Shown one piece after another: positions 6,775 through 27,350 of a DNA stretch of 64,000 bases. The translations under genes and the position numbers were made by a program. Position 1 is the stretch's first letter. Every line of letters begins with the position of its first letter. The DNA is taken from positions 10,273 to 74,272 of the forward strand of contig CAZQCO010000005.1 in assembly GCA_964592225.1 (NCBI GenBank). The letters run 5' to 3'. The stretch is from an uncultured Bacteroidales bacterium. GTDB taxonomy: Bacteria; Bacteroidota; Bacteroidia; Bacteroidales; UBA10428. The notes under the pieces are model-generated. The model made no database searches. It was not told where the DNA came from and was given only the letters and a program-made list of their open reading frames with translations.

Positions 6775-7682
6775 GATTTCAATCCAAGAATAAGTGATAT
6801 TATTGCCTGCCTCACATAAACTCCATTTTCAGTTTGCTGAAAGTAATAGGCCTTTGGATTTGCATCTACATCGGTATTTATTTCATTTACCCTGGGAAGC
6901 GGATGTAGTACCCTCATATTCTCCCTGGTTCCTGCCAACATTTCATCTCTTAAAACATAGGCGTTTTTAGTTTTTTCATATTCGATTGGATCAGAAAATC
7001 TTTCTTTCTGAACACGAGTCATATAAACAATATCAGCATTTTTTATATTCCCATTAAGTTCTCGTGATTCATGATATTGCAGTCCAATACTGTTTAATAA
7101 TATTTTATACTCTTCGGGCATTCTTAATTCATCAGGTGATATGAAATAAAAAGTTGCATTAAATTCTGAAAGTGCCATTAAAAGTGAATGTACTGTGCGA
7201 CCGTATTTCAAATCGCCCACCATAAATATATTCAGGTCCGTCAGCTTCCCCTGAGTTTTCTGAATGGAGTATAAATCGAGCAAGGTTTGTGTGGGATGTT
7301 GATTAGCTCCATCACCTGCATTAATAACCGGTATTTTAGTCAATTCGCTGGCATAGCGTGCACTCCCTTCCAGCGGATGCCGCATTACAATCAATTCAGC
7401 ATAGTTGCTCACAACACGAATGGTATCATATAGGGTTTCCCCTTTTGTAACCGACGAAGTAACAGAATCGCTAAAGCCAATAACCTTCCCTCCTATACGA
7501 TTAATGGCACTCTCAAAACTTAATCTTGTACGTGTTGATGGTTCGAAAAAAAGAGTGGCAATTACTTTACCCTTAAGCAGATCCTGATACGATTTTTTTT
7601 CGAAACCAGCTGCAGTATCAAGGATTTTTAAATAATCATCCTTAGAAAAGTCAGTTATTGAAATAAGACTTTTATTCAGCAT
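6771..7682 (-). CDS. pyrB: Aspartate carbamoyltransferase catalytic subunit
   Basis: 303 aa with '[13 protein letters not shown]', 'HPTQ' and 'HPLPR' motifs. Confidence 0.95.
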
Positions 7683-7848
7683 ATGATAACTGATATTTTA
7701 AGTAAAAATAGCCAACAAAACGGGTAAAAGAAAGAGTTGTTAACATCTATTGAAAAATTTACATTATTTACTTAGAAAGCTATTCTCCAGATTATAATTA
7801 AAACCATACAGATATATAGCATTTTCAGTATATCAATAATTCCCGGGC

Positions 7849-8466
7849 TCATTCCTGTAATATTTTAATTTTTAAATTCTTCAGTTTTGAAAACCGTTGT
7901 TCGACAGAATCGAAGGATTTTTTTTCTGCTGTAAGTTTTATCCAGCAGTCCATATCAGAATATTGTTCATTTATTAAGATTGATTCATCCTTAATGATCC
8001 TCATAACCGAATTCATATCCGTATATGGAAAAGAAATTTTAAAGTTGATTTCAGATCTACACTTTAAACATGTTGCTTTTGAAAGACAATCTGCGGCAGC
8101 TGTCCGGTAGGCATTTATTAATCCGGATGTTCCAAGTAGCTTACCTCCAAAATAACGAACCACGACAAGCAGAATATTGGTGAGATTGTTTGATTCTATT
8201 TGGCCTAATATTGGCCTTCCAGCCGTACCCGAAGGTTCTCCATCATCATTCACTCGGTAATACTGCTCTTCTATACCTAAGCGAAAAGCAAAACAAAAAT
8301 GTCTGGCATCGTGGTATTTTTTCTTCACCTGATTCAGAATTTGTCTAATCTCTTCTTCATTAGATACAGAATAAGCAAATGAAAGAAACTTACTGCCTCT
8401 ATCTTTATAAATTCCCTCAGTATCTGATTTAATGGTTAAAAAAGTATCTGGTTCCATATCAGTCAA
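7849..8466 (-). CDS. YigZ / IMPACT family protein
   Basis: 205 aa with the 'DDGEPSGTAGRPIL' motif typical of UPF0029/IMPACT-N. Confidence 0.8.
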   Translation of the reverse strand: MTDMEPDTFLTIKSDTEGIYKDRGSKFLSFAYSVSNEEEIRQILNQVKKKYHDARHFCFAFRLGIEEQYYRVNDDGEPSGTAGRPILGQIESNNLTNILLVVVRYFGGKLLGTSGLINAYRTAAADCLSKATCLKCRSEINFKISFPYTDMNSVMRIIKDESILINEQYSDMDCWIKLTAEKKSFDSVEQRFSKLKNLKIKILQE

Positions 8467-10389: not shown

Positions 10390-11463
10390 TTGAAGAAAAA
10401 ATTGTTTATCATAGGATGCTCAGGCATACCAGCACGATATGGTGGATTTGAAACTTTTGCAGAAAATATTGCCCTTGAATTGACCAAAAATCTCGAAATA
10501 AGCGTCATCTGCAGTTCCAAATTGTATGGTCCGTCTGAACAAGAATTAAACTGGAAATCGATAAGGCGAATCTTCTTCAATGTTGATCCCAATGGTATTC
10601 GAAGCATTTTATATGATCTTAAGGGACTATTATTAGCCGTCAAGGAATCGGATTATATTCTTCTACTTGGTATAGGTGCGGCCATATTGCTGCCATTTAT
10701 CCCTTTCTTAAAATCAAAATATTTATGTGTCCATGTCGATGGTATCGAATGGAAAAGATCAAAATGGAATATTGTCGCTAAATTATTTCTGAGATTAGGT
10801 TATATACTTTCATTGCGCTATGCAAAAACAATTATTCTTGATAGCAAAGCTCTTGCTCAATATGTGCCCAACAAGTATCTGAAAAAAATCGCATATATCA
10901 ATTATGGAGGTAATCATTTACACCAGTTTTTACCTCTTAGTACTCTCAAGGATTCCTCCTATGCCTTGGTAATAGCGAGGGCTGAACCTGAGAATAATTT
11001 ACTTCTTGTACTTAAAGTGTTTCATAAGAATCAAAATCTCAAACTGATAATTATCTCAAACTGGAACCATACCCGATATGGGAAAAAATTATGTGAGTCC
11101 TATTCAAAGGCTCCCAATATTCAAATGATCGATGCAATTTATGATGATATGTCTAAATTGCAGCAATATAGGGCAAATTGCACCCTATATATTCATGGGC
11201 ATAGTGCTGGAGGAACAAATCCTTCACTGGTGGAAGCGATGTTTACAGGGCTGCCAGTAATAGCCTGGGATAATATTTTTAACAGAGTCACAACCCATGA
11301 TCTGGCATTTTATTTTAAAACAGAGGAAGAACTTGAAAAACAGTTAGTATCATTGAAGAAGCCTGAACTATTGAGATGTGCAAAAGAATTGAGTAAGTAC
11401 GCAAAACAGAACTATACCTGGAACATAGCTGCCAAAAAAATACTCGAATTAATTGAGCAATAA
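10390..11463 (+). CDS. Glycosyltransferase (DUF1972 N-domain / GT1-like C-domain)
   Basis: 357 aa with a TTG start. 'GCSGIPARYGGFETFAENIA' is the DUF1972-type N-terminus. The C-terminal 'HGHSAGGTNPSLVEAM' is a GT-B/GT1-like motif. Confidence 0.75.
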   Translation: MKKKLFIIGCSGIPARYGGFETFAENIALELTKNLEISVICSSKLYGPSEQELNWKSIRRIFFNVDPNGIRSILYDLKGLLLAVKESDYILLLGIGAAILLPFIPFLKSKYLCVHVDGIEWKRSKWNIVAKLFLRLGYILSLRYAKTIILDSKALAQYVPNKYLKKIAYINYGGNHLHQFLPLSTLKDSSYALVIARAEPENNLLLVLKVFHKNQNLKLIIISNWNHTRYGKKLCESYSKAPNIQMIDAIYDDMSKLQQYRANCTLYIHGHSAGGTNPSLVEAMFTGLPVIAWDNIFNRVTTHDLAFYFKTEEELEKQLVSLKKPELLRCAKELSKYAKQNYTWNIAAKKILELIEQ

Positions 11464-14884: not shown

Positions 14885-15065
14885 AAGTTTTACTACCCTA
14901 CTCCATATCTATATTATTAATAATCATCTCAATTATTGTTAAAAATTGATGTTAACATAATTGCTCATTTTATACCAAGGTATTCCGTTGAGCAATTTTT
15001 TTATCAACAAGAAGTGACATTTTATCCAAATAATGAACCATATTTTGTAATTTTCGTAGAATTGT

Positions 15066-18377: not shown

Positions 18378-19709
18378 CTATTTCCTCAGAAGCTTCTGAC
18401 GTAAAATTGCCGATCGGAAAGGATCTATGATGCGAATTAACAAACTTCTTTGGTCCGTTATTATCTCAGCTACTCCGGGCATGTTTTGCTGAAATGCAAG
18501 TGCAATATTATAATTAGTAATCAACCTCATACTGTCAAGACGTATTTCAACTGCATAGGATTCATCATTTGGCACTAGAGAAATAGATTTTATCTTTCCA
18601 GTAATCGTTCCAAACTCCAAATAGGGGTAATTATCGAAACGGATAACTGCACTATGACCCTCCTTCACTTTCCCGGCACCTTTTGCTGAGAGCATAACTT
18701 TGCCCAATAACTCACCCTGCTCCGTGGGCAAAACTGTTAAAACCACCTCACCCTTTTCAACATACTGATTTTCTGACCATATTTTTGTGAATGAAACCTG
18801 ACCTTCAAAAGGTGAGCGAATGATATAATTCTGTTCCCATTGTGCAATTTCTCCCTTAAGTTTCTCATATGACTCCTTGATGTTCTGTTCAAAAGTCCTG
18901 CTGTTTTCTTCAAATTTTAGTTCTAATTCCAAAATTTCCTGCTGCAGGTTGGAAACTTCTATTTGAGATGAAGCTAATTCCGTCTGGGTGTTCTTCCATT
19001 CGGAAAGTTTATTCAACTTCTGTGCTTCAGATTTTTCAAGTTGTGATGAGGAAATAACTCTGTCGACATAAAGAGCAGAATCCCTTTGATATTGTTTTTC
19101 AACCAGACGATATTCCTGCTTTTGAATAACCTCCTTATCTTCCAACCTATCGAGGAATAGAGAATATTTTTTTAATTCGGCATTAACTGAATTGATTTTT
19201 CTCTGATAATAATTAAGTTTTTTAAAATTGATATATTCCTGAATGCGTTTCTGTAAAATTGTATAAGCATCTTGCAAGGATCCAAGTTTAATATTGTCTG
19301 GAAAACTTACTACAGTTAATGAATCAATAGTCATACTTTTTCCTAATAATTCCGACAGGTTGCGTACATCATCGTAATTTGAAGCGGACTCAAATACTAC
19401 AAGCACTTGATTTTTATCAATAAGCTCTGTATCGGTTACATAAAATTTATTAATCCTCGCCGATGTATTTGCCACCATTTCAGCAGGAGGAGTTTCTGTA
19501 GTTAATTTAATTGGGGCTTTAATAATATCAGGGTATTTAAGAAATGCCGATCCGATAAAAAGAAGTTGCAACACAGCTATGATAACAACAGTACCAAAAC
19601 GAACTATCCAGCGGGGAACCTGTCCCAGAATGTCACGAAGTTGTTCGCTGCGCAGTTCAAGACTTCCGGCGGCTTGTTTGTCTTTCTCAGTATAATTTAT
19701 TTTAGCCAT
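18378..19709 (-). CDS. HlyD-family membrane fusion / secretion adaptor protein
   Basis: 443 aa with an N-terminal TM, a long coiled-coil and a C-terminal beta-barrel domain. The start codon overlaps the stop of the upstream ABC exporter by 1 nt (TAATG). Confidence 0.85.
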   Translation of the reverse strand: MAKINYTEKDKQAAGSLELRSEQLRDILGQVPRWIVRFGTVVIIAVLQLLFIGSAFLKYPDIIKAPIKLTTETPPAEMVANTSARINKFYVTDTELIDKNQVLVVFESASNYDDVRNLSELLGKSMTIDSLTVVSFPDNIKLGSLQDAYTILQKRIQEYINFKKLNYYQRKINSVNAELKKYSLFLDRLEDKEVIQKQEYRLVEKQYQRDSALYVDRVISSSQLEKSEAQKLNKLSEWKNTQTELASSQIEVSNLQQEILELELKFEENSRTFEQNIKESYEKLKGEIAQWEQNYIIRSPFEGQVSFTKIWSENQYVEKGEVVLTVLPTEQGELLGKVMLSAKGAGKVKEGHSAVIRFDNYPYLEFGTITGKIKSISLVPNDESYAVEIRLDSMRLITNYNIALAFQQNMPGVAEIITDQRSLLIRIIDPFRSAILRQKLLRK

Positions 19710-21901
19710 TAACTACCTAATTCAAGTTGATTTTTAACCAGTTTATAGTAAGCTCCCTTTAGTTGTGTCAATTCCTGATGAGTTCCATACTCAATAATTT
19801 TTCCTTCTTCCAGTACCACTATCTGATCGGCATTTCGCACTGTACTGAGCCTATGAGCAACCACTACTACTGTCCTTCCATCAAAAAATTTATACAAATT
19901 ATTAATTATTTGTCGTTCGTTGTTCGCATCGAGAGCATTTGTTGCTTCATCGAAGAACAGAAAGGAAGGATTTTTATAAAGAGCCCGTGCTATAAGTATC
20001 CTTTGCTTTTGCCCCTGGCTAAGTCCGAGACCCTCCATTCCAATTTTGGTATTAAAACCCAAAGGCAGACCATCAGCAATTTCATGTACATTAGCCATAC
20101 GTGCCGCATAATATAATTTCTCTTTATCGATCTCTTCGTCTGAAAGTGCAATATTCCGGGCAATTGTATCTGAAAAAAGATAACCATCCTGCATAACAAC
20201 TCCACATATACTTCTCCAGTATGCCGGATTAATAGTATCCAGGTTTTGATCGTCAATTAAAATATCCCCATCAACCGGATCATAAAACTTAAGTATTAAT
20301 TTAATCAGAGTCGTTTTACCGCTTCCGCTTGTACCTACTATAGCTGTTGTTTTATTTTCAGGTATATGCAGATTGATATTTTTCAAGACAAAGGGCGAAT
20401 GGGGCCCTTCATATTGAAAGGCCAAATTCCTGATCGTAATTTCATTTTTATTTCCTGAAAAGTCAGAGATCAGATCAGGTGATGAACTTTCTTCTTCTTC
20501 CAAGTTATGAACCTCTGCCAGACGATTAAGACTTATTTTTGCATCCTGAGTGTTATGAAAAAAGTTAATTAATAGATCGATAGGGCCGGAAAGTTGCCCG
20601 ATAACATATGATATAGCCACCATACTACCTAAGGTCATCTGCCCTTTCATTACCAATAATGCAGTGTAGAATACTATCAGCACATCTTTATACTGGTTGA
20701 ATATAAGTGCTCCGGCTTTTTGATTTTGCAGAAGGGTCAATCCTTTTATATTAAGACGAAATAGCTTTGCCTGGATATCCTCCCATTCCCAGCGTTTTCT
20801 TTTCTCACAATTATTAAGCTTTATTTCAGGCATCCCCGACAGCAATTGCAGGAGATTACTCTGATTACTTGAAAGCTGGGCAAATTTCCGATTATCGAGA
20901 TCTTTTCTCCTCTTCATGAATTGCAAGGTCCATATTAAGTAAAATATACTTCCGGCAATGAAGATTAAGAAAATCTTTATACTGAATATGGCCAGGACGA
21001 TTCCCATTATGACCATAGAAAAAACCGAGTAGAATAAATCGATTGTCGTTTGTGTTAAAAATGTTTCAACACGCTTATGATCAGCTACTCTTTGTAACAA
21101 ATCGCCCCGATTTTTGGTTTCAAAAAACGAAAGCGGCAAACGCATAAGCTTTATTAGAAAATCAGAAATGAGATAAATATTAACTCGCGAACCTAAATGG
21201 AGAATTATCCAGTTCCGGATAAATTCAAGCGAGAACCGGCTGGTTACAAGAATTAATTGCGCAATAAGTATGGTTATAACAAGGGAAAGATTAGGAATCA
21301 CTATTCCTTTATCGACAATAGTTTGAAACAGGAATGGAAAAATAACCTGAATAAGCGCTCCAATAATCACACCCAGAATAATTTGGGTAATCAGTGCTTT
21401 GTATGGGCGAATGTATTTAAATAGAAAACTTAATTGACTTCTGTTGATTTGTTCGTCTTCAGCCTTGTAGAAATCGGGAGTAGGTTCAAGCTGAAGGCAA
21501 ACACCCATGGTCTCTCCGTTTTCAATAGTTGAGGCCCAGCACTGAAGAAACTCTTCCCTGGTATAAACCGCAGCGCCGAAGGCAGGATCGATTACATATA
21601 TTTTGTTTTTTTGAATTTTCCTGACGACAATAAAATGCTCCTGCTTCCAATGAGCTATACATGGGAGAATAAGCTGATGGCGTACCTGCTCAAATGAAAG
21701 TTTAACACCTCTTGTCCGAAAACCAATTGATTCGGCAGCTTCACTGATACCCAGCAACGAAACTCCCGCCCTATTGATATAACTTAATGAACGTAAAGTC
21801 TCGAAAGAAAAATGTTTACCATGATACCTGGCTATCATTCTTAGACAAGCCGGGCCACAATCGTTGGCATCGTGTTGCAGGAATACCGGAAACTTAGGCA
21901 T
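19709..21901 (-). CDS. Peptidase-C39-domain ABC transporter (PCAT; double-glycine peptide cleavage/export)
   Basis: 730 aa. N-terminal C39 motifs are intact: 'QHDANDCGPACLRMI' (catalytic Cys), 'EHFIVV' (His) and 'VIDPA'. It has a 6-TM domain, Walker A 'GTSGSGKTT', signature 'LSQGQKQR' and Walker B 'LFFDEATNALD'. Confidence 0.93.
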   Translation of the reverse strand: MPKFPVFLQHDANDCGPACLRMIARYHGKHFSFETLRSLSYINRAGVSLLGISEAAESIGFRTRGVKLSFEQVRHQLILPCIAHWKQEHFIVVRKIQKNKIYVIDPAFGAAVYTREEFLQCWASTIENGETMGVCLQLEPTPDFYKAEDEQINRSQLSFLFKYIRPYKALITQIILGVIIGALIQVIFPFLFQTIVDKGIVIPNLSLVITILIAQLILVTSRFSLEFIRNWIILHLGSRVNIYLISDFLIKLMRLPLSFFETKNRGDLLQRVADHKRVETFLTQTTIDLFYSVFSMVIMGIVLAIFSIKIFLIFIAGSIFYLIWTLQFMKRRKDLDNRKFAQLSSNQSNLLQLLSGMPEIKLNNCEKRKRWEWEDIQAKLFRLNIKGLTLLQNQKAGALIFNQYKDVLIVFYTALLVMKGQMTLGSMVAISYVIGQLSGPIDLLINFFHNTQDAKISLNRLAEVHNLEEEESSSPDLISDFSGNKNEITIRNLAFQYEGPHSPFVLKNINLHIPENKTTAIVGTSGSGKTTLIKLILKFYDPVDGDILIDDQNLDTINPAYWRSICGVVMQDGYLFSDTIARNIALSDEEIDKEKLYYAARMANVHEIADGLPLGFNTKIGMEGLGLSQGQKQRILIARALYKNPSFLFFDEATNALDANNERQIINNLYKFFDGRTVVVVAHRLSTVRNADQIVVLEEGKIIEYGTHQELTQLKGAYYKLVKNQLELGS

Positions 21902-23769: not shown

Positions 23770-24071
23770 AGTAATAAATATTTCAATTTACATAATTTCA
23801 GACATATACATTAATATATACTCTTCCATCAGGTCTCACGATTACGATCCCCTAATATGGATCAGAAATTGATCTTAATAAGGAACTCTATCAATAATAG
23901 AGTACAAATTACTTTTAAAAATTTTTTAAAATTCTTATAACCCGGTTAATTATAACCGGTAGTAAATACTTAATAGTAACAATACTTTATTTTAAAGTGT
24001 TTTTATTTATACCAGTCAATATCTTAATTTCAGAGTTAACTTCAGTTACTCCATTGAACCTTGCATTTTTT

Positions 24072-24150
24072 AAAAAAGGAGGCGAGATAAAATCTAGATT
24101 AGGAAAGGAATTGAAGTTATGTGCCGTTAAAACCATCTTCTATCTCGCCT
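24072..24150 (-). terminator. Long-loop hairpin plus T-run immediately downstream of the small peptide ORF
   Basis: 10-bp perfect inverted repeat: aggcgagata (24080-24089) / tatctcgcct (24141-24150). On the minus strand the stem is followed by CC + TTTTTT (24077-24072). The plus strand also has a T8 run at 24159-24166, so it could act in both directions. Confidence 0.45.
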
Positions 24151-24199
24151 GTATACCCTTTTTTTTATCATTGAGAAAATAATCAAATTTTTAAATAAC

Positions 24200-24331
24200 C
24201 TATTCAAAATCCGGAGGGGGAGGAGGAATTTTTCCGCCGCCACGGATTTTTGACATTTCTTCCAGATTCAATATTCTGAGTTCTCTATTCATCTTTTTCG
24301 AATCGCCGTTTAAAAAGTTTACATTTTTCAT
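24200..24331 (-). CDS. Double-glycine-leader peptide precursor (43 aa; not in the ORF track)
   Basis: Hand translation of the minus strand gives MKNVNFLNGDSKKMNRELRILNLEEMSKIRGGGKIPPPPPDFE*. An alternative start at Met14 (24292) gives an 18-aa leader. 'LNLEEMSKIRGG' fits the L-x-x-E-(L/M)-x-x-I-x-G-G leader consensus. A C39 exporter with intact catalytic residues lies 2.3 kb away. Confidence 0.7.
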   Translation of the reverse strand: MKNVNFLNGDSKKMNRELRILNLEEMSKIRGGGKIPPPPPDFE

Positions 24332-24518
24332 TGTACAGGGGTTTTTGAAATGTTTTTCTTATATAGTATAGTTCCACTCACCATTGAAATGTCACCGCCA
24401 TTTTCCTTTTATTTTTGTTTTTTTTAAAATTATTTTTCTAAGGATCTGTTTAACAATAATTTATATTCTTCATTTTTTCACATTATTTTCCTATTTTCGA
24501 AACATAGAGGCCTTTTCC

Positions 24519-27350
24519 ATGAGAAATCTCAGAATAATATTGGTTTTATTTAGCCTGATTGAATTATGGCAAATTTTGTGGTCACCTGTGTATTCTAATA
24601 CAGATATCCAAAATAGCCAGATACTGATCGATTCAGTTAATATATTAGTCGATTCAGCCAACTTATATAAAAGTATAGGAGACTATGAAAAATCATTGAA
24701 ACTAATTGAAAGAACGCATCTCCTTCGTAAAAGAATATTTAATGATACAAGCCTATTGGTAATTAAAAGCTATATTAATATGGCTAATGCAAATACGCTT
24801 GTTTATGAATATGATAAAGCTTTACAATATTTACGTGAAGCTGAGTCGATATGTAAACGTGTAGAAAAAGAGAGGGCGGAAGAAATAGGTATTATTTATT
24901 CATACTACGGCCGTATTTATAAAGAAATGGGAAATTATATTCAGGCTGAACAATTTCTCAGGAGAGCTGATGAATATTTAATAAATAATAATATTAAAAA
25001 TAAAAAACAGTTAGTATCTCATTATATGTTGTTTGCTGACGTGGAATTGATGCTGGAAAACCTAGAGAGTTCACTAAAGTACTCTCAAAAAAGCCTTGAA
25101 ATAATTCAGAAATTAGATCAAAATGAAGGATTGTTAATTGACTATTTTATGGGTTCGGCTTTGACCTATGCCAAATCAGGAGATTTTAGTAAAAGTATTC
25201 AGCTTCAGCAAACGGCCATTCAATTGGCCAGAAGTGATTCAGCACAAAATGCACTTCGATTAGCTATTCTTTATAATAATATAGGATTAGATTATCTGGA
25301 AATTCAACAATTAGATAAGGCTAACGAAACCTTATTAAAAGCATTTACGATTTTCAATAGTCTTGGAGTAAAAGGATCATTTTTAGCCGAACTTTACGAA
25401 AATTTCGGAAGACTCTGGTGCTTAAAAGGTGATTTCATGAAAGCACTTAATTACTACCAAAAGGGTTTGGAAGTTACAGCATCACTTATGCCCACCAACC
25501 AGGTGTTGGGAAATCCTGAAATTCAGCAGATAGAAGCTGAATTGCCTGCGCTTAAAATACTTAAATCGAAAATTAATTGTCTCACAAAGCTCTATTTTAA
25601 GAAGAAGAATATCGAATACCTGGATGGAGCAATTAATACATCATTGCTGGCTATTGAATTGATTGAGCAACTTAGAAACAGTTATCAGAGTTATGATAGC
25701 AAGCTCCAAACAACAAAACAAGAGTACGAGATATTTAATAATACTCTGGATTTGCTGAAGATCGCTTATCGACTTACAGGCAAATCAAAATATAGTGAGA
25801 TTACTTTTACAGTTTCGGAAAAATCAAAATCTTCTATCCTCTTATCAGTTTTAAGTGAACTGGATGCAAAGCAATTTGGTGATATCCCCGATAGTTTATT
25901 GAAAAAGGAAAAAAATCTTTCGAAATCCATTGCCTTTTATAAAGAAAACCTATATGAAGAAAGGCAGAATAACGATCCGGATCTGGCAAAAATCAATACA
26001 TGGGAAAAGTATCTTTTTAATGCACAACATGAACATGAACAGCTTATTGCTTTTTTCGAACTCAACTACCCAAAATATTATCATTTAAAATATGACTATT
26101 CAGTAACAGATATTCGAAAATTACAAAAACATTTACCGCTTCGAACATCACTTATCGAATACAGTCTTTCTGACTCTGTTCTTATTACTTTTATTATTAC
26201 CAGGAATAGTTTTCATATGCTTGAACAAACTGTTGATAAAGATTTTTTTAAAAACCTTAATCAGTATTTATATAAATTTCATCATTTCGATTTTAGCATA
26301 CAGTCCCTGAACGATTTTTCTGAATTCTGCGATATTAGCTCTTCTCTCTATAATATTTTAATAGCACCTGCCTATGAATATATGTCCGGAAATTCACTAA
26401 TCGTTGTACCGGATGGAATATTATCGTATTTACCCTTCGAAACATTGATAAAGCAGATACCTGAGGGAATATCTACAAATCTTTACCGGAACCTGGAATA
26501 TCTGATCAACGAATTCAATGTTTCGTACTCCTATTCTGCAACATTACTTAACCAGGTGAGTGGTAAACAAAGACTGTCTGCCAATAAAAGACTTCTTGCT
26601 TTTGCTCCTGTATATTCTGAAGATCAAAATGAGAATATCTCTGCAAATCGTTACGTAACAAGGCAAAATTACAGAAAGAACTTGTTTCCAATTCCCGGAG
26701 TTATTGAAGAAGTTGAAACCATTCATAAACTTATACCCGGAGATGTATTTATAGGTATAAATGCTACTGAAAAGAATTTTAAAGATACGGCCAGTTTTTA
26801 TGATATACTGCATCTTGCCATGCATACTGTAATAGATAACAGCAATCCTCTTTACTCCAAATTAATTTTTACACTGAACCGGGATTCCACTCAGGATGGT
26901 TTGCTCAATACATACGAAATTTTCGATCTCGCTTTAAATGCCCGAATGGTTGTATTAAGTGCATGCAGTACAGGAGGTGGCGAGTTCAATAATGGAGAAG
27001 GAGTTATTAGTCTTGCCCGGGGGTTTGTTTATGCCGGTTCACCCAGTATTGTGATGACTATGTGGGAGGTTGAAGATAAATCGGGTTCAGAGCTTATGAG
27101 ATACTTTTATAAGAATTTAATTAAAGGACAATCCAAATCGAAGGCCATGCGAAATGCAAAACTTCAATGTCTTAGAGAGGCACGTCCTGAAAATACTCAT
27201 CCCTTCTTCTGGTCGTCATTTGTTGTATTGGGTAACTCACAACCATTATATGCAAGAAAATATTTAATTGCAATTATCAGCTTAATCAGTATTGTATTAC
27301 TCTTTCTGATCCTAAAAAAAATCCGGAAAATCAGTACTCATTATCAATAA
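24519..27350 (+). CDS. TPR-CHAT protein (caspase-like CHAT protease domain), membrane-anchored
   Basis: The ORF-track start (TTG 24384) translates AT-rich spacer. ATG 24519 gives MRNLRIILVLFSLIELWQILW..., which reads as a signal peptide or anchor. About 400 aa of TPR-like repeats follow. The C-terminal CHAT domain has a His/Cys dyad in 'ILHLAMHT' and 'VVLSACSTGGG'. Terminal TM 'LIAIISLISIVLLFLIL' is followed by KKIRK. Confidence 0.88.
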   Translation: MRNLRIILVLFSLIELWQILWSPVYSNTDIQNSQILIDSVNILVDSANLYKSIGDYEKSLKLIERTHLLRKRIFNDTSLLVIKSYINMANANTLVYEYDKALQYLREAESICKRVEKERAEEIGIIYSYYGRIYKEMGNYIQAEQFLRRADEYLINNNIKNKKQLVSHYMLFADVELMLENLESSLKYSQKSLEIIQKLDQNEGLLIDYFMGSALTYAKSGDFSKSIQLQQTAIQLARSDSAQNALRLAILYNNIGLDYLEIQQLDKANETLLKAFTIFNSLGVKGSFLAELYENFGRLWCLKGDFMKALNYYQKGLEVTASLMPTNQVLGNPEIQQIEAELPALKILKSKINCLTKLYFKKKNIEYLDGAINTSLLAIELIEQLRNSYQSYDSKLQTTKQEYEIFNNTLDLLKIAYRLTGKSKYSEITFTVSEKSKSSILLSVLSELDAKQFGDIPDSLLKKEKNLSKSIAFYKENLYEERQNNDPDLAKINTWEKYLFNAQHEHEQLIAFFELNYPKYYHLKYDYSVTDIRKLQKHLPLRTSLIEYSLSDSVLITFIITRNSFHMLEQTVDKDFFKNLNQYLYKFHHFDFSIQSLNDFSEFCDISSSLYNILIAPAYEYMSGNSLIVVPDGILSYLPFETLIKQIPEGISTNLYRNLEYLINEFNVSYSYSATLLNQVSGKQRLSANKRLLAFAPVYSEDQNENISANRYVTRQNYRKNLFPIPGVIEEVETIHKLIPGDVFIGINATEKNFKDTASFYDILHLAMHTVIDNSNPLYSKLIFTLNRDSTQDGLLNTYEIFDLALNARMVVLSACSTGGGEFNNGEGVISLARGFVYAGSPSIVMTMWEVEDKSGSELMRYFYKNLIKGQSKSKAMRNAKLQCLREARPENTHPFFWSSFVVLGNSQPLYARKYLIAIISLISIVLLFLILKKIRKISTHYQ

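Follow-up and report, generated by a model that had tools for sequence, protein, structure and literature searches.

A 43-codon open reading frame (ORF) on the minus strand, at positions 24200–24331 of a 64,000-nt stretch of an uncultured Bacteroidales genome (contig CAZQCO010000005.1; the whole stretch is referred to below as the window), encodes a peptide with a double-glycine (GG) leader and a short, acidic, proline-rich tail. We put the probability that this ORF is the precursor of a small exported regulatory peptide belonging to a conserved Bacteroidales cassette at roughly 50%. The parts of this reading differ in strength. Judging by the pattern of variation in related loci, the ORF is a genuine gene under purifying selection, and its product is very probably a real substrate of a peptidase-containing ABC transporter (PCAT). 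The specific receptor and protease steps considered further below are proposed with low confidence.

Translation of the reverse complement confirmed the ORF and gives MKNVNFLNGDSKKMNRELRILNLEEMSKIRGGGKIPPPPPDFE*. According to the original prediction, which was made from the letters of the window alone, the gene had been overlooked because of a length limit; indeed, it is not among the listed ORFs of 60 aa or more, and it does appear when ORFs down to 20 aa are listed. The description of the gene as unannotated is correct for the former list of the window, but not for homologues, which have been gene-called publicly as "hypothetical protein". The segment LNLEEMSKIRGG has the double-glycine spacing that had been claimed for it (L−12, E−8, M−7, I−4, G−2, and G−1, corresponding to L21, E25, M26, I29, G31, and G32 of the peptide), and the peptide thus has the features that define GG-leader PCAT substrates at the sequence level. 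If cleavage occurs after Gly32, the predicted core, GKIPPPPPDFE, is an 11-residue, cysteine-free peptide with five consecutive prolines, a pI of 4.75, a grand average of hydropathy (GRAVY) of −1.09, and a monoisotopic mass of 1192.61 Da. A scan of all six frames revealed no other small ORF with a GG leader in the window. The expected chance frequency of a strict GG pattern (a Met-started ORF with L-x3-[ED]-[LM]-x2-[IV]-x-GG and a tail of 3–30 aa) is 0.01 per 64 kb, and one such ORF was contained in three of 300 first-order Markov resamples. Met1 is the conserved start. Met14, which had been put forward as an alternative, is replaced by Leu in a related locus, L001, and it is the Met1 block, ATGAAAAAT, that the five closest loci share without change.

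A search with the 43-mer returned five homologues (P0001–P0005) of 41–44 aa, in which LNLEEMSKIRGGGKIP is invariant and the tails differ (PPPPELE, VENEPDFE, NDDPGGFD, ADGDDVLK, and DDDDPGFN); the gene order on their contigs is the same as in the window. Relatives whose neighbouring proteins are 75–81% identical carry GKIPVENEPDFE, GKIPADGDDVLK, and GKIPDDDDPGFN instead of the PPPPP run. At the nucleotide level, the 16-codon block that encodes LNLEEMSKIRGGGKIP contains 12 variable columns in five loci and not a single amino-acid change: 11 of these columns are third codon positions, and the remaining one is a synonymous TTG/CTG exchange. In these close loci, differences in peptide length are in frame, and the alternative frames are rich in stops. 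The possibility that the ORF arose by chance, with conservation at the DNA or RNA level only and no translation of the frame, would fit its short length and the lack of a curated family match. It is contradicted by the purely synonymous variation of the leader, by the in-frame indels next to stop-containing alternative frames, and by the occurrence of a GG-leader ORF at the corresponding position of loci whose DNA cannot be aligned, where 0.01 per window is expected by chance. On these grounds, we consider the chance-ORF explanation already effectively refuted.

More distant loci were reached by using the product of the downstream gene, a 254-aa tetratricopeptide repeat (TPR) protein, as an anchor. 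A protein search with this anchor yielded at least 281 relatives, the source-named ones being "Bacteroidales bacterium" metagenome-assembled genomes (MAGs). A genome scan yielded L011, at 38% identity, to which L012–L015 were added by look-up, and a metagenome scan yielded 80 loci with identities from 100% to 29%. The carriers of the peptide are, without exception, uncultured MAGs or metagenome contigs. In distant loci, small ORFs with a Met start and a [hydrophobic]-x-x-[hydrophobic]-x-GG motif followed by a short tail were accepted. Loss of the reading frame or of the GG motif in syntenic loci had been set beforehand as a test capable of refuting the prediction; both are conserved. Of the 46 non-redundant loci for which 700 nt or more of upstream sequence are available, 41 contain a GG small ORF immediately ahead of the TPR gene and in the same orientation. 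This position is kept down to 29% identity of the neighbouring TPR protein, and also where the DNA is unalignable. A profile built from 41 peptides retrieved 52 called proteins of 41–73 aa. Where named, these are "hypothetical protein", save for one "bacteriocin-like protein" (JGI), and those with an organism name come from Bacteroidales MAGs. Tandem peptide genes are present in three loci: L015 (7134–7304 and 7400–7528), L065 (starting at 1164 and 1350), and L066 (639 and 825). The leaders of the tandem copies differ, and their cores are identical or nearly so (DDNTTGLET twice in L015).

The family analysed comprises 49 peptides with 48 distinct cores. As far as the leader is concerned, M/L−7, I/V−4, and GG are found in all 49 peptides, E/D−8 and R/K−3 in 45 each, and L−12 in 47 of the 48 peptides that are long enough, with S/T/N at −11. 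The cores are 9–26 residues long (median 15) and contain 22.5% Pro (0.2% in the leaders), 21.5% Asp plus Glu, 12% Ile, and 10% Gly; Ser and Thr are scarce. A net negative charge is seen in 43 of the 48 cores, and 46 are free of Cys. Pro occurs in 41 cores, PP in 30, PPP in nine, and PPPP or longer in five. Several core frames can be distinguished. In the group of the window, GKIP is followed by a variable acidic tail; in clade B, whose proteins are ~30% identical, the frame is (D/E)x(D/E)PI(V/I)KPxxPP(I/V)x(I/L); and in a DNDP-xx-PIKK subfamily variation is confined to two positions, which are hypervariable.

Polyproline runs appear in separate lineages (the window, L044 with PPPPPPP, L051 with PPPPPP, and L068 with PPPPP), and the five-proline run of the window is a lineage-specific extreme of the family-wide proline tendency. 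Neither the suggestion that this run is the defining feature of the peptide nor the suggestion that peptide output is coupled to translational status through EF-P could be extended to the family. The run is missing in close relatives and sporadic elsewhere, so EF-P coupling is at most lineage-specific. Attenuation by translational arrest at PPPPP was also considered and found no support, since the run is not conserved and the downstream hairpin lies ~35–50 nt past the stop codon, as estimated from the coordinates.

The curated libraries Pfam and NCBIfam hold no model for the peptide family and return weak, leader-only matches to generic GG-leader and bacteriocin models. The window peptide gave a 14.8-bit match to the lactococcin G-beta leader model (cutoff 37) and an 11.8-bit match to the Pfam Mersacidin model (PF16934); one family member exceeded the cutoff of TIGR01847 (bacteriocin_sig; 19.2 versus 15.7 bits). 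Given the lack of a curated model, annotation pipelines miss these peptides or leave them unnamed.

Class II bacteriocins and class II microcins are usually exported by way of a GG leader, PCAT, and HlyD. The peptide could be an unmodified bacteriocin or microcin of small size that leaves the cell through PCAT/HlyD and kills competitors, and the bacteriocin-like name given to one homologue, as well as the fact that the only NCBIfam matches are to bacteriocin leader models, would agree with this. These database matches, however, cover the leader only. A bacteriocin-type core, which is typically at least 25–30 aa long and cationic, amphipathic or hydrophobic, or disulfide-containing, was found neither in the window nor in the family, whose cores are 9–26 aa long, acidic, and 22% Pro, with no amphipathic or hydrophobic stretch and with Cys in only two of 48. 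Known proline-rich antimicrobial peptides are cationic, whereas the window core is acidic. The original prediction that the product does not resemble a pore-forming bacteriocin is thus borne out: it is too short and too acidic and has too few hydrophobic segments. The genes around the peptide point in the same direction, since the conserved partners are regulators (sigma factor, kinase, TPR, and CHAT proteins). Neither a conserved small membrane ORF of the immunity type nor a conserved modification enzyme was found in the annotation of the window and in the neighbourhoods of clades A (the group of the window) and B. We therefore hold an antimicrobial role to be improbable. The short acidic proline-rich cores, the regulator neighbours, and the two-position hypervariability in DNDP-xx-PIKK all speak for a signal over a toxin. 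That the peptide is a regulatory or signalling ligand of the cassette rather than a toxin is, in our estimate, an even bet, and it becomes probable when a variant that acts within the producing cell only (see below) is counted in.

GG leaders also guide the maturation of peptides that are synthesized on the ribosome and modified post-translationally (RiPPs), and the core might undergo modification before PCAT export, by enzymes whose genes lie elsewhere. Two clade B peptides show a weak resemblance to the TIGR04149 leader of radical SAM-modified RiPPs (12–13 bits versus a cutoff of 25), and a small radical SAM gene is located ~3 kb downstream in clade B loci. However, the encoded protein (~206 aa) gave no SPASM match and has no counterpart in clade A, the cassette contains no conserved modification enzyme, and the cores have next to no Cys and little Ser or Thr, which makes this explanation highly improbable. 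In L081 and L087, the radical SAM gene (10659–11279 and 10592–11221, respectively, both on the minus strand) is accompanied by a TPR-PD40-OmpA gene downstream of the cassette. Together with 5'-nucleotidase and NamZ genes, these extra clade B genes were judged to be unrelated, since they are not common to clade A.

Upstream of the peptide ATG there is a bipartite promoter-like motif, GGTGACATTT-N10-GTGGAAC, which occurs once in the window. A motif of the form GGTGACATTT-N10-(G/A)TGG(A/T)AC is common to every clade A locus at this place. There is one copy per locus, and extra copies front extra peptide or RNA units in L021, L027, and L049. In clade B, the counterpart is GTGTCACAAA-N12–14-CGACATGTA, at an equivalent position (e.g., 6532–6559 in L072). 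Throughout the family, the second block reads approximately ATG(G/T)AA(C/T). No motif of this type was found ahead of other cassette genes. Occurrence ahead of peptide and RNA units only, and the joint change of motif and cassette between clades, argue for a regulatory circuit. In having two blocks, the first of GGT(A/G)AC type, the motif resembles extracytoplasmic function (ECF) promoters. It is a candidate alternative, ECF-type sigma promoter that may be recognized by the sigma factor of the cassette. A weaker variant of the motif, GTGACATTTTATCCAAATAATGAAC, is located at 15014–15038 on the plus strand, 27 nt upstream of a multi-PAS kinase gene; it is kept in L001 and partly in L003, and not in more distant loci. 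In a sub-clade represented by L013 (~7650–8000), L030, L031, and L032, a motif GGTAACCTTTT-N8-TTATGTAATTAA lies ~350 nt upstream and is followed by a conserved non-coding sequence, AACCCTGTTAYTTGARACATATTAATTAAACCCTGAGAGCTG. The same motif is also present in L028 (1–342), with PCAT/HlyD genes downstream and no GG peptide visible in the 342 nt.

The peptide gene is followed by a structured RNA element, which consists of a 10-bp stem (GGCGAGATA/TATCTCGCC) around ~60 nt with an invariant GGTTTTAAYGGCAC, and then a T-run. The element is 100% identical in five loci whose proteins are 64–97% identical to those of the window. Its stem is 96% paired, with three covarying pairs (e.g., GGCAGGA/TCCTGCC in L014 and GGCGGGA/TCCCGCC in L021). 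A covariance model, R1, gave one match in the window (89.5 bits) and matches in 17 related clade A loci, invariably between the peptide gene and the TPR gene; no such element was seen downstream of clade B peptides. Neither an E-value scan nor a gathering-threshold scan of Rfam returned a family for it. In L027, L021, and L049, the element has its own copy of the peptide-type promoter, and thus behaves there as a separate small-RNA (sRNA) unit; in the window, it is predicted to form the 3' end of the peptide transcript, as a terminator and/or an sRNA. L035 contains two tandem RNA elements and no detectable peptide gene. A coding function of the element (ORF MVLTAHNF...) was rejected, as L014 and L021 have no start codon for it and the frames that follow are not the same. 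Overall, the element may represent a new family of sRNAs or terminators that is confined to clade A. Two further conserved inverted repeats are located between the element and the TPR gene, at 23934–23962 and 23976–24000 on the minus strand (CTACCGGTTATAATTAACCGGGTTATAAG; palindrome ACTTTAAAATAAAGT within ACACTTTAAAATAAAGTATTGTTAC, where AATACTTTTAAATAAAGTATT is the five-locus consensus). They may be operators or terminators ahead of the TPR-kinase-PCAT-HlyD operon.

As can be seen from these data, no coding sequence in the locus is as conserved as the 3' element, which also has a covarying stem. Together with its own promoter in some loci and its presence in L035, this would be expected if the transcript were a dual-function RNA that acts chiefly as an sRNA through its 3' element, with the peptide being accessory. 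On the other hand, the element is absent from clade B and from several other peptide-bearing loci, the peptide frame is under clear purifying selection, and the only base-pairing targets detected within the window were 10–12-mers at chance level. The RNA and the peptide may simply be co-regulated outputs, and we regard an RNA-centred function as quite improbable.

The coordinates of the peptide gene, its associated elements, and the neighbouring genes are collected in Table 1.

Table 1. Positions of the peptide gene and of the surrounding features in the window.
Feature	Position (nt)	Strand	Basis or remark
Peptide precursor gene	24200..24331	-	43 codons + stop
Leader, codons 1-32	24236-24331	-	
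Predicted core GKIPPPPPDFE	24203-24235 (stop 24200-24202)	-	
Bipartite promoter-like motif	24371..24396	-	40-65 nt upstream of peptide ATG
Structured RNA element, 81 nt, with T-run	24072..24152	-	Between peptide stop and TPR gene
Single-pass membrane TPR protein, 254 aa	23005..23769	-	Pfam TPR; AlphaFold2 pLDDT 79.6
Histidine kinase, 308 aa, no sensor or transmembrane segment	21971..22897	-	Pfam HisKA + HATPase_c; H-box HEIRTPL
PCAT: C39 peptidase + ABC membrane domain + ATPase	19709..21901	-	Pfam, NCBIfam
HlyD-family periplasmic adaptor, 443 aa	18378..19709	-	Pfam HlyD_3, TIGR01843; overlaps PCAT stop codon
Multi-PAS histidine kinase, 1102 aa	15066..18374	+	Pfam
TPR-CHAT caspase-like protease, 943 aa	24519..27350	+	Pfam CHAT E 7.8e-60, TPR_12; divergent from peptide gene
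ECF-type sigma-70 family factor, 190 aa	27366..27938	-	TIGR02937 53.8 bits (cutoff 42.9); Pfam Sigma70_r2

Mapping of the window proteins onto related loci by tblastn revealed two gene orders. In clade A, the order is sigma(+) CHAT(−) | peptide(+) TPR(+) kinase(+) PCAT(+) HlyD(+), and in clade B it is HlyD(−) PCAT(−) | sigma(+) CHAT(−) | peptide(+) TPR(+) kinase(+). Thus, PCAT/HlyD switch sides in clade B yet remain in the cluster, which argues for functional linkage; HlyD stays paired with PCAT in both orders. A CHAT gene is present in 28 of the 30 loci with at least 2 kb of upstream sequence, and every one of these 28 also carries the peptide. Where 5 kb or more of upstream sequence is available, 19 of 22 loci have the sigma gene, which adjoins CHAT even where the order is rearranged, and the kinase is encoded immediately downstream of the TPR gene in 48 of the 49 loci with enough downstream sequence. 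When both flanks extend for at least 6.5 kb, PCAT and HlyD are nearby in 13 of 17 peptide-bearing loci. Five peptide-less loci have no CHAT, sigma, or PCAT gene within the available sequence. L013 and L030–L032 make up a TPR-plus-kinase sub-clade (42–45% identity), and the L038 contig is too short to judge. The CHAT-TPR intergenic region contains no further conserved ORF, the peptide being the sole coding-type conservation there. When compared with the PADLOC defence models, the cassette proteins gave generic ABC-ATPase matches for PCAT only and none for the sigma, CHAT, TPR, kinase, or HlyD proteins, and these models revealed no link of the cassette to CBASS or CRISPR.

The presence of an intact C39-ABC exporter in the locus, which had been part of the original prediction, was confirmed. 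Over its full length, the protein matches PCAT1 (4ry2; E 7e-107) and ComA (8hf4; ~1e-95), and Gln9, Cys15, His89, and Asp105 of its C39 domain align to the catalytic residues of LahT150 (6mpz), PCAT1 (4ry2), and ComA (3k8u). With this Gln/Cys/His/Asp set in place, the PCAT is predicted to be catalytically competent.

The CHAT gene starts at a conserved ATG (24519; MRNLRIIL...), which fits the lengths of homologues (892–964 aa); an ORF listed at 24384–27350 (plus strand, TTG start, 988 aa) starts too early, the extra part being 24384–24518. At its N-terminus the protein is hydrophobic and signal-like; a single transmembrane helix and a short basic tail make up the C-terminal end. His769 and Cys816 are invariant in nine homologues with 28–70% identity. 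Based on the signal-like N-terminus and the C-terminal anchor, the bulk of the protein should be located in the periplasm, and the invariant His/Cys dyad suggests that it should be an active protease there. The N-terminal TPR region diverges fastest, at 58% identity versus 83% for the CHAT domain in a comparison of the window with L001. No sequence similarity to solved CHAT proteases (the DdvA, craspase, and separase structures) was detected, the matches being to TPRs only, and Pfam gave no match to an anti-sigma domain on this protein.

The AlphaFold2 model of the 254-aa TPR protein consists of a three-helix N-terminal domain, a transmembrane helix (residues 85–109), and 3.5 TPR repeats. By the positive-inside rule, the N-terminal domain is predicted to be cytoplasmic and the TPR domain periplasmic. 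A Foldseek search with the model, in which the TPR domain dominates the matches, returned small three-TPR domains (BamD, YbgF, SycD/PcrH/IpgC, Hop, and CHIP), and several of the matched TPR domains were solved with bound short peptides. An invariant motif of the protein is G-x-NLYSGIS-x-x-E; its family counts 691 clusters (50% identity) at E ≤ 1e-30. For the N-terminal domain, the commonest weak Pfam match is zf-HC2, seen in three of 17 members (best E 0.044). We consider the protein to be a candidate sensor or, as these weak matches hint, an anti-sigma-like partner. About a quarter of the best 150 representatives, among them P0176, P0179, and P0185, are proteins of ~500 aa with two tandem copies of the 254-aa architecture. 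In L006/L010 (883–1642 of CAYUAV010000446.1), the TPR gene is split into ORFs of 61 and 187 aa, being either a frameshift pseudogene or an assembly error. The multi-PAS kinase gene lies beside HlyD or the kinase gene in clade A loci and is lacking in clade B, and its membership in the cassette is uncertain.

The order of genes for a peptide, a sensor-like protein, a kinase, PCAT, and HlyD mirrors that of Gram-positive pheromone operons. We propose the following mechanism. The peptide gene would be transcribed from its own bipartite alternative-sigma-type promoter. The C39 domain of PCAT would recognize the 32-residue leader and cleave behind Gly32, and the acidic, proline-rich 11-mer would leave the cytoplasm through PCAT/HlyD. 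A TPR module would bind the core in its extended, polyproline-type form, either in the periplasm or once the peptide has been released and has re-entered. The likeliest receptor would be the N-terminal TPR array of the CHAT protease, the alternative being the conserved TPR domain of the 254-aa membrane protein. The former is favoured because of the strict co-occurrence of peptide and CHAT genes, whereas the TPR-protein/kinase pair also exists alone, and because this array is the fastest-evolving part of the cassette, paralleling the variable cores. Binding would alter CHAT proteolysis and/or signalling by the TPR protein and the kinase, and would thereby set the activity of the ECF sigma factor, with feedback on the peptide promoter and the co-regulated RNA element. 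The cleavage site, export, receptor, protease target, sigma-promoter link, and the scope of the response (cell density versus the single cell) are all inferred from sequence. In its most specific form, a cell-cell circuit in which the peptide is read by the periplasmic TPR array, CHAT cleaves the TPR/anti-sigma-like protein, and the sigma factor is freed to activate the peptide gene and the sRNA, the proposal is a tentative one, and we would not expect it to hold in every step.

Several observations weigh against an exported signal. L015, L027, L043, and L093 bear the peptide without PCAT/HlyD in the neighbourhood, and neither Pfam annotation nor the comparison of loci revealed an outer-membrane channel gene in the cassette. 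Once released, the 1.2-kDa acidic peptide would need to re-enter the periplasm, unless it is released there initially. On the regulatory side, no response regulator was found in any locus annotated, no candidate anti-sigma gene shares a transcript with the sigma gene, and Pfam searches with the single sequence and with 17 members, as well as a profile comparison with the PDB, did not demonstrate an anti-sigma domain in the 254-aa protein. A related promoter motif is present in the TPR-plus-kinase sub-clade with no peptide, CHAT, or sigma gene nearby, and the promoter may thus not depend on the cassette's own sigma factor. Finally, the cores of clade B are rather conserved, (D/E)x(D/E)PIVKPxxPPIxI, which also fits a structural or inhibitory ligand.

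The closest rival overlaps with the exported-signal explanation and differs from it only in scope. According to this rival, the peptide is a cell-autonomous ligand of CHAT, either a securin-like pseudosubstrate inhibitor or a substrate, that tunes the protease in the producing cell, with no population signal. Tripartite exporters that lack an outer-membrane partner would release their substrate into the periplasm, and PCAT/HlyD would then deliver the peptide to the compartment where CHAT is expected to sit. Peptide and CHAT genes co-occur strictly, are divergent, and have a common intergenic region, and the clade B cores are well conserved, as would be expected for a ligand of an active site or groove. 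Separase, likewise, is held by securin along its TPR-like domain (cited in PMC11506125). This rival leaves unexplained, however, why export would rely on a GG leader and a dedicated ATP-driven PCAT rather than on a Sec signal peptide, as well as the tandem peptide genes with their own promoters and the hypervariability of DNDPxxPIKK. We therefore regard an exclusively cell-autonomous role as unlikely, and prefer an exported regulatory peptide.

Full-text literature searches for this combination found no description of the cassette or of the peptide family. The cassette is apparently undescribed, and, if the signalling interpretation is true, it would be a pheromone pathway whose parts had not been combined before. 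PCAT-exported linear peptide pheromones are a hallmark of Gram-positive bacteria, and gene-encoded peptide signals in Gram-negative bacteria are rare and poorly understood. The cassette is widespread in uncultured Bacteroidales, with 691 clusters in its TPR family and dozens of distinct peptide variants, and the linkage of a GG-leader peptide with an ECF sigma factor and a caspase-like protease of the periplasm suggests that a secreted peptide may be coupled to transcription in a novel way. The peptide is a candidate natural ligand for a bacterial TPR-CHAT protease, a class whose activating signals are mostly unknown. A concrete, synthesizable 11-mer and a defined promoter motif are open to direct experiment, and a candidate new small RNA family is flagged beside a peptide family that has no curated model.

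Among known systems, the original prediction likened the peptide to pheromones of the ComC/CSP type. The comparison with ComC/CSP-ComAB-ComDE and BlpC/PlnA/EntF-type systems stands with respect to the short unmodified GG-leader peptide, PCAT with an accessory protein, and the pheromone-sized predicted product, and a further likeness to these Gram-positive systems is a kinase gene listed as directly downstream of the peptide gene. It fails on the receptor side: here, the host is Gram-negative, and there is neither a polytopic HPK10 kinase nor a LytTR response regulator. Periplasmic TPR sensing and an ECF sigma, and possibly CHAT, output are proposed instead, and the core is acidic and proline-rich. 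The RRNPP receptors (Rap, NprR, PlcR, and PrgX) are cytoplasmic TPR proteins, and their peptides are exported by Sec and re-imported by Opp. They resemble the system proposed here in that TPR domains serve as direct receptors of short linear signalling peptides, and differ from it in that our TPR domains are predicted to be periplasmic and export would occur through PCAT. In the DegS/RseA/sigma-E pathway of E. coli, C-termini of misfolded porins bind the PDZ sensor on a serine protease, and the resulting cascade frees an ECF sigma factor. The likeness consists in a short peptide that is recognized in part through its C-terminus, activates a periplasmic protease, and so starts the proteolytic release of an ECF sigma factor; in our proposal, however, the peptide is a dedicated, gene-encoded, and exported one, the sensors are TPRs, and the protease is caspase-like.

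Two further Gram-negative systems were compared. In heterocystous cyanobacteria, HetC, a peptidase-domain ABC exporter, is found together with a short regulatory peptide, PatS (PMC4133259). With HetF, these make up a regulatory peptide, a peptidase-domain exporter, and a CHAT-family protease in one developmental process of a Gram-negative bacterium. The likeness lies in the domain families. The Anabaena genes, by contrast, are unclustered, PatS does not have a comparable architecture of GG leader and proline-rich core, and the receptor is the transcription factor HetR. In Myxococcus xanthus, DdvA, a periplasmic TPR-CHAT anti-sigma factor, works with the ECF sigma factor DdvS, and it has been proposed that a signal activates CHAT proteolysis, upon which the sigma factor is released (PMC11506125). 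As in DdvA/DdvS, an ECF sigma gene adjoins a gene for a membrane-anchored periplasmic TPR-CHAT module with a His-Cys dyad (PMC11506125), and DdvA/DdvS thus provides a precedent for the control of an ECF sigma factor by such a module. The TPR-CHAT protein of the window differs in that it has no N-terminal anti-sigma domain, and carries a signal-like N-terminus and a C-terminal anchor instead; moreover, a separate TPR membrane protein, a kinase, PCAT, and a peptide predicted to be secreted are encoded in the same cassette.

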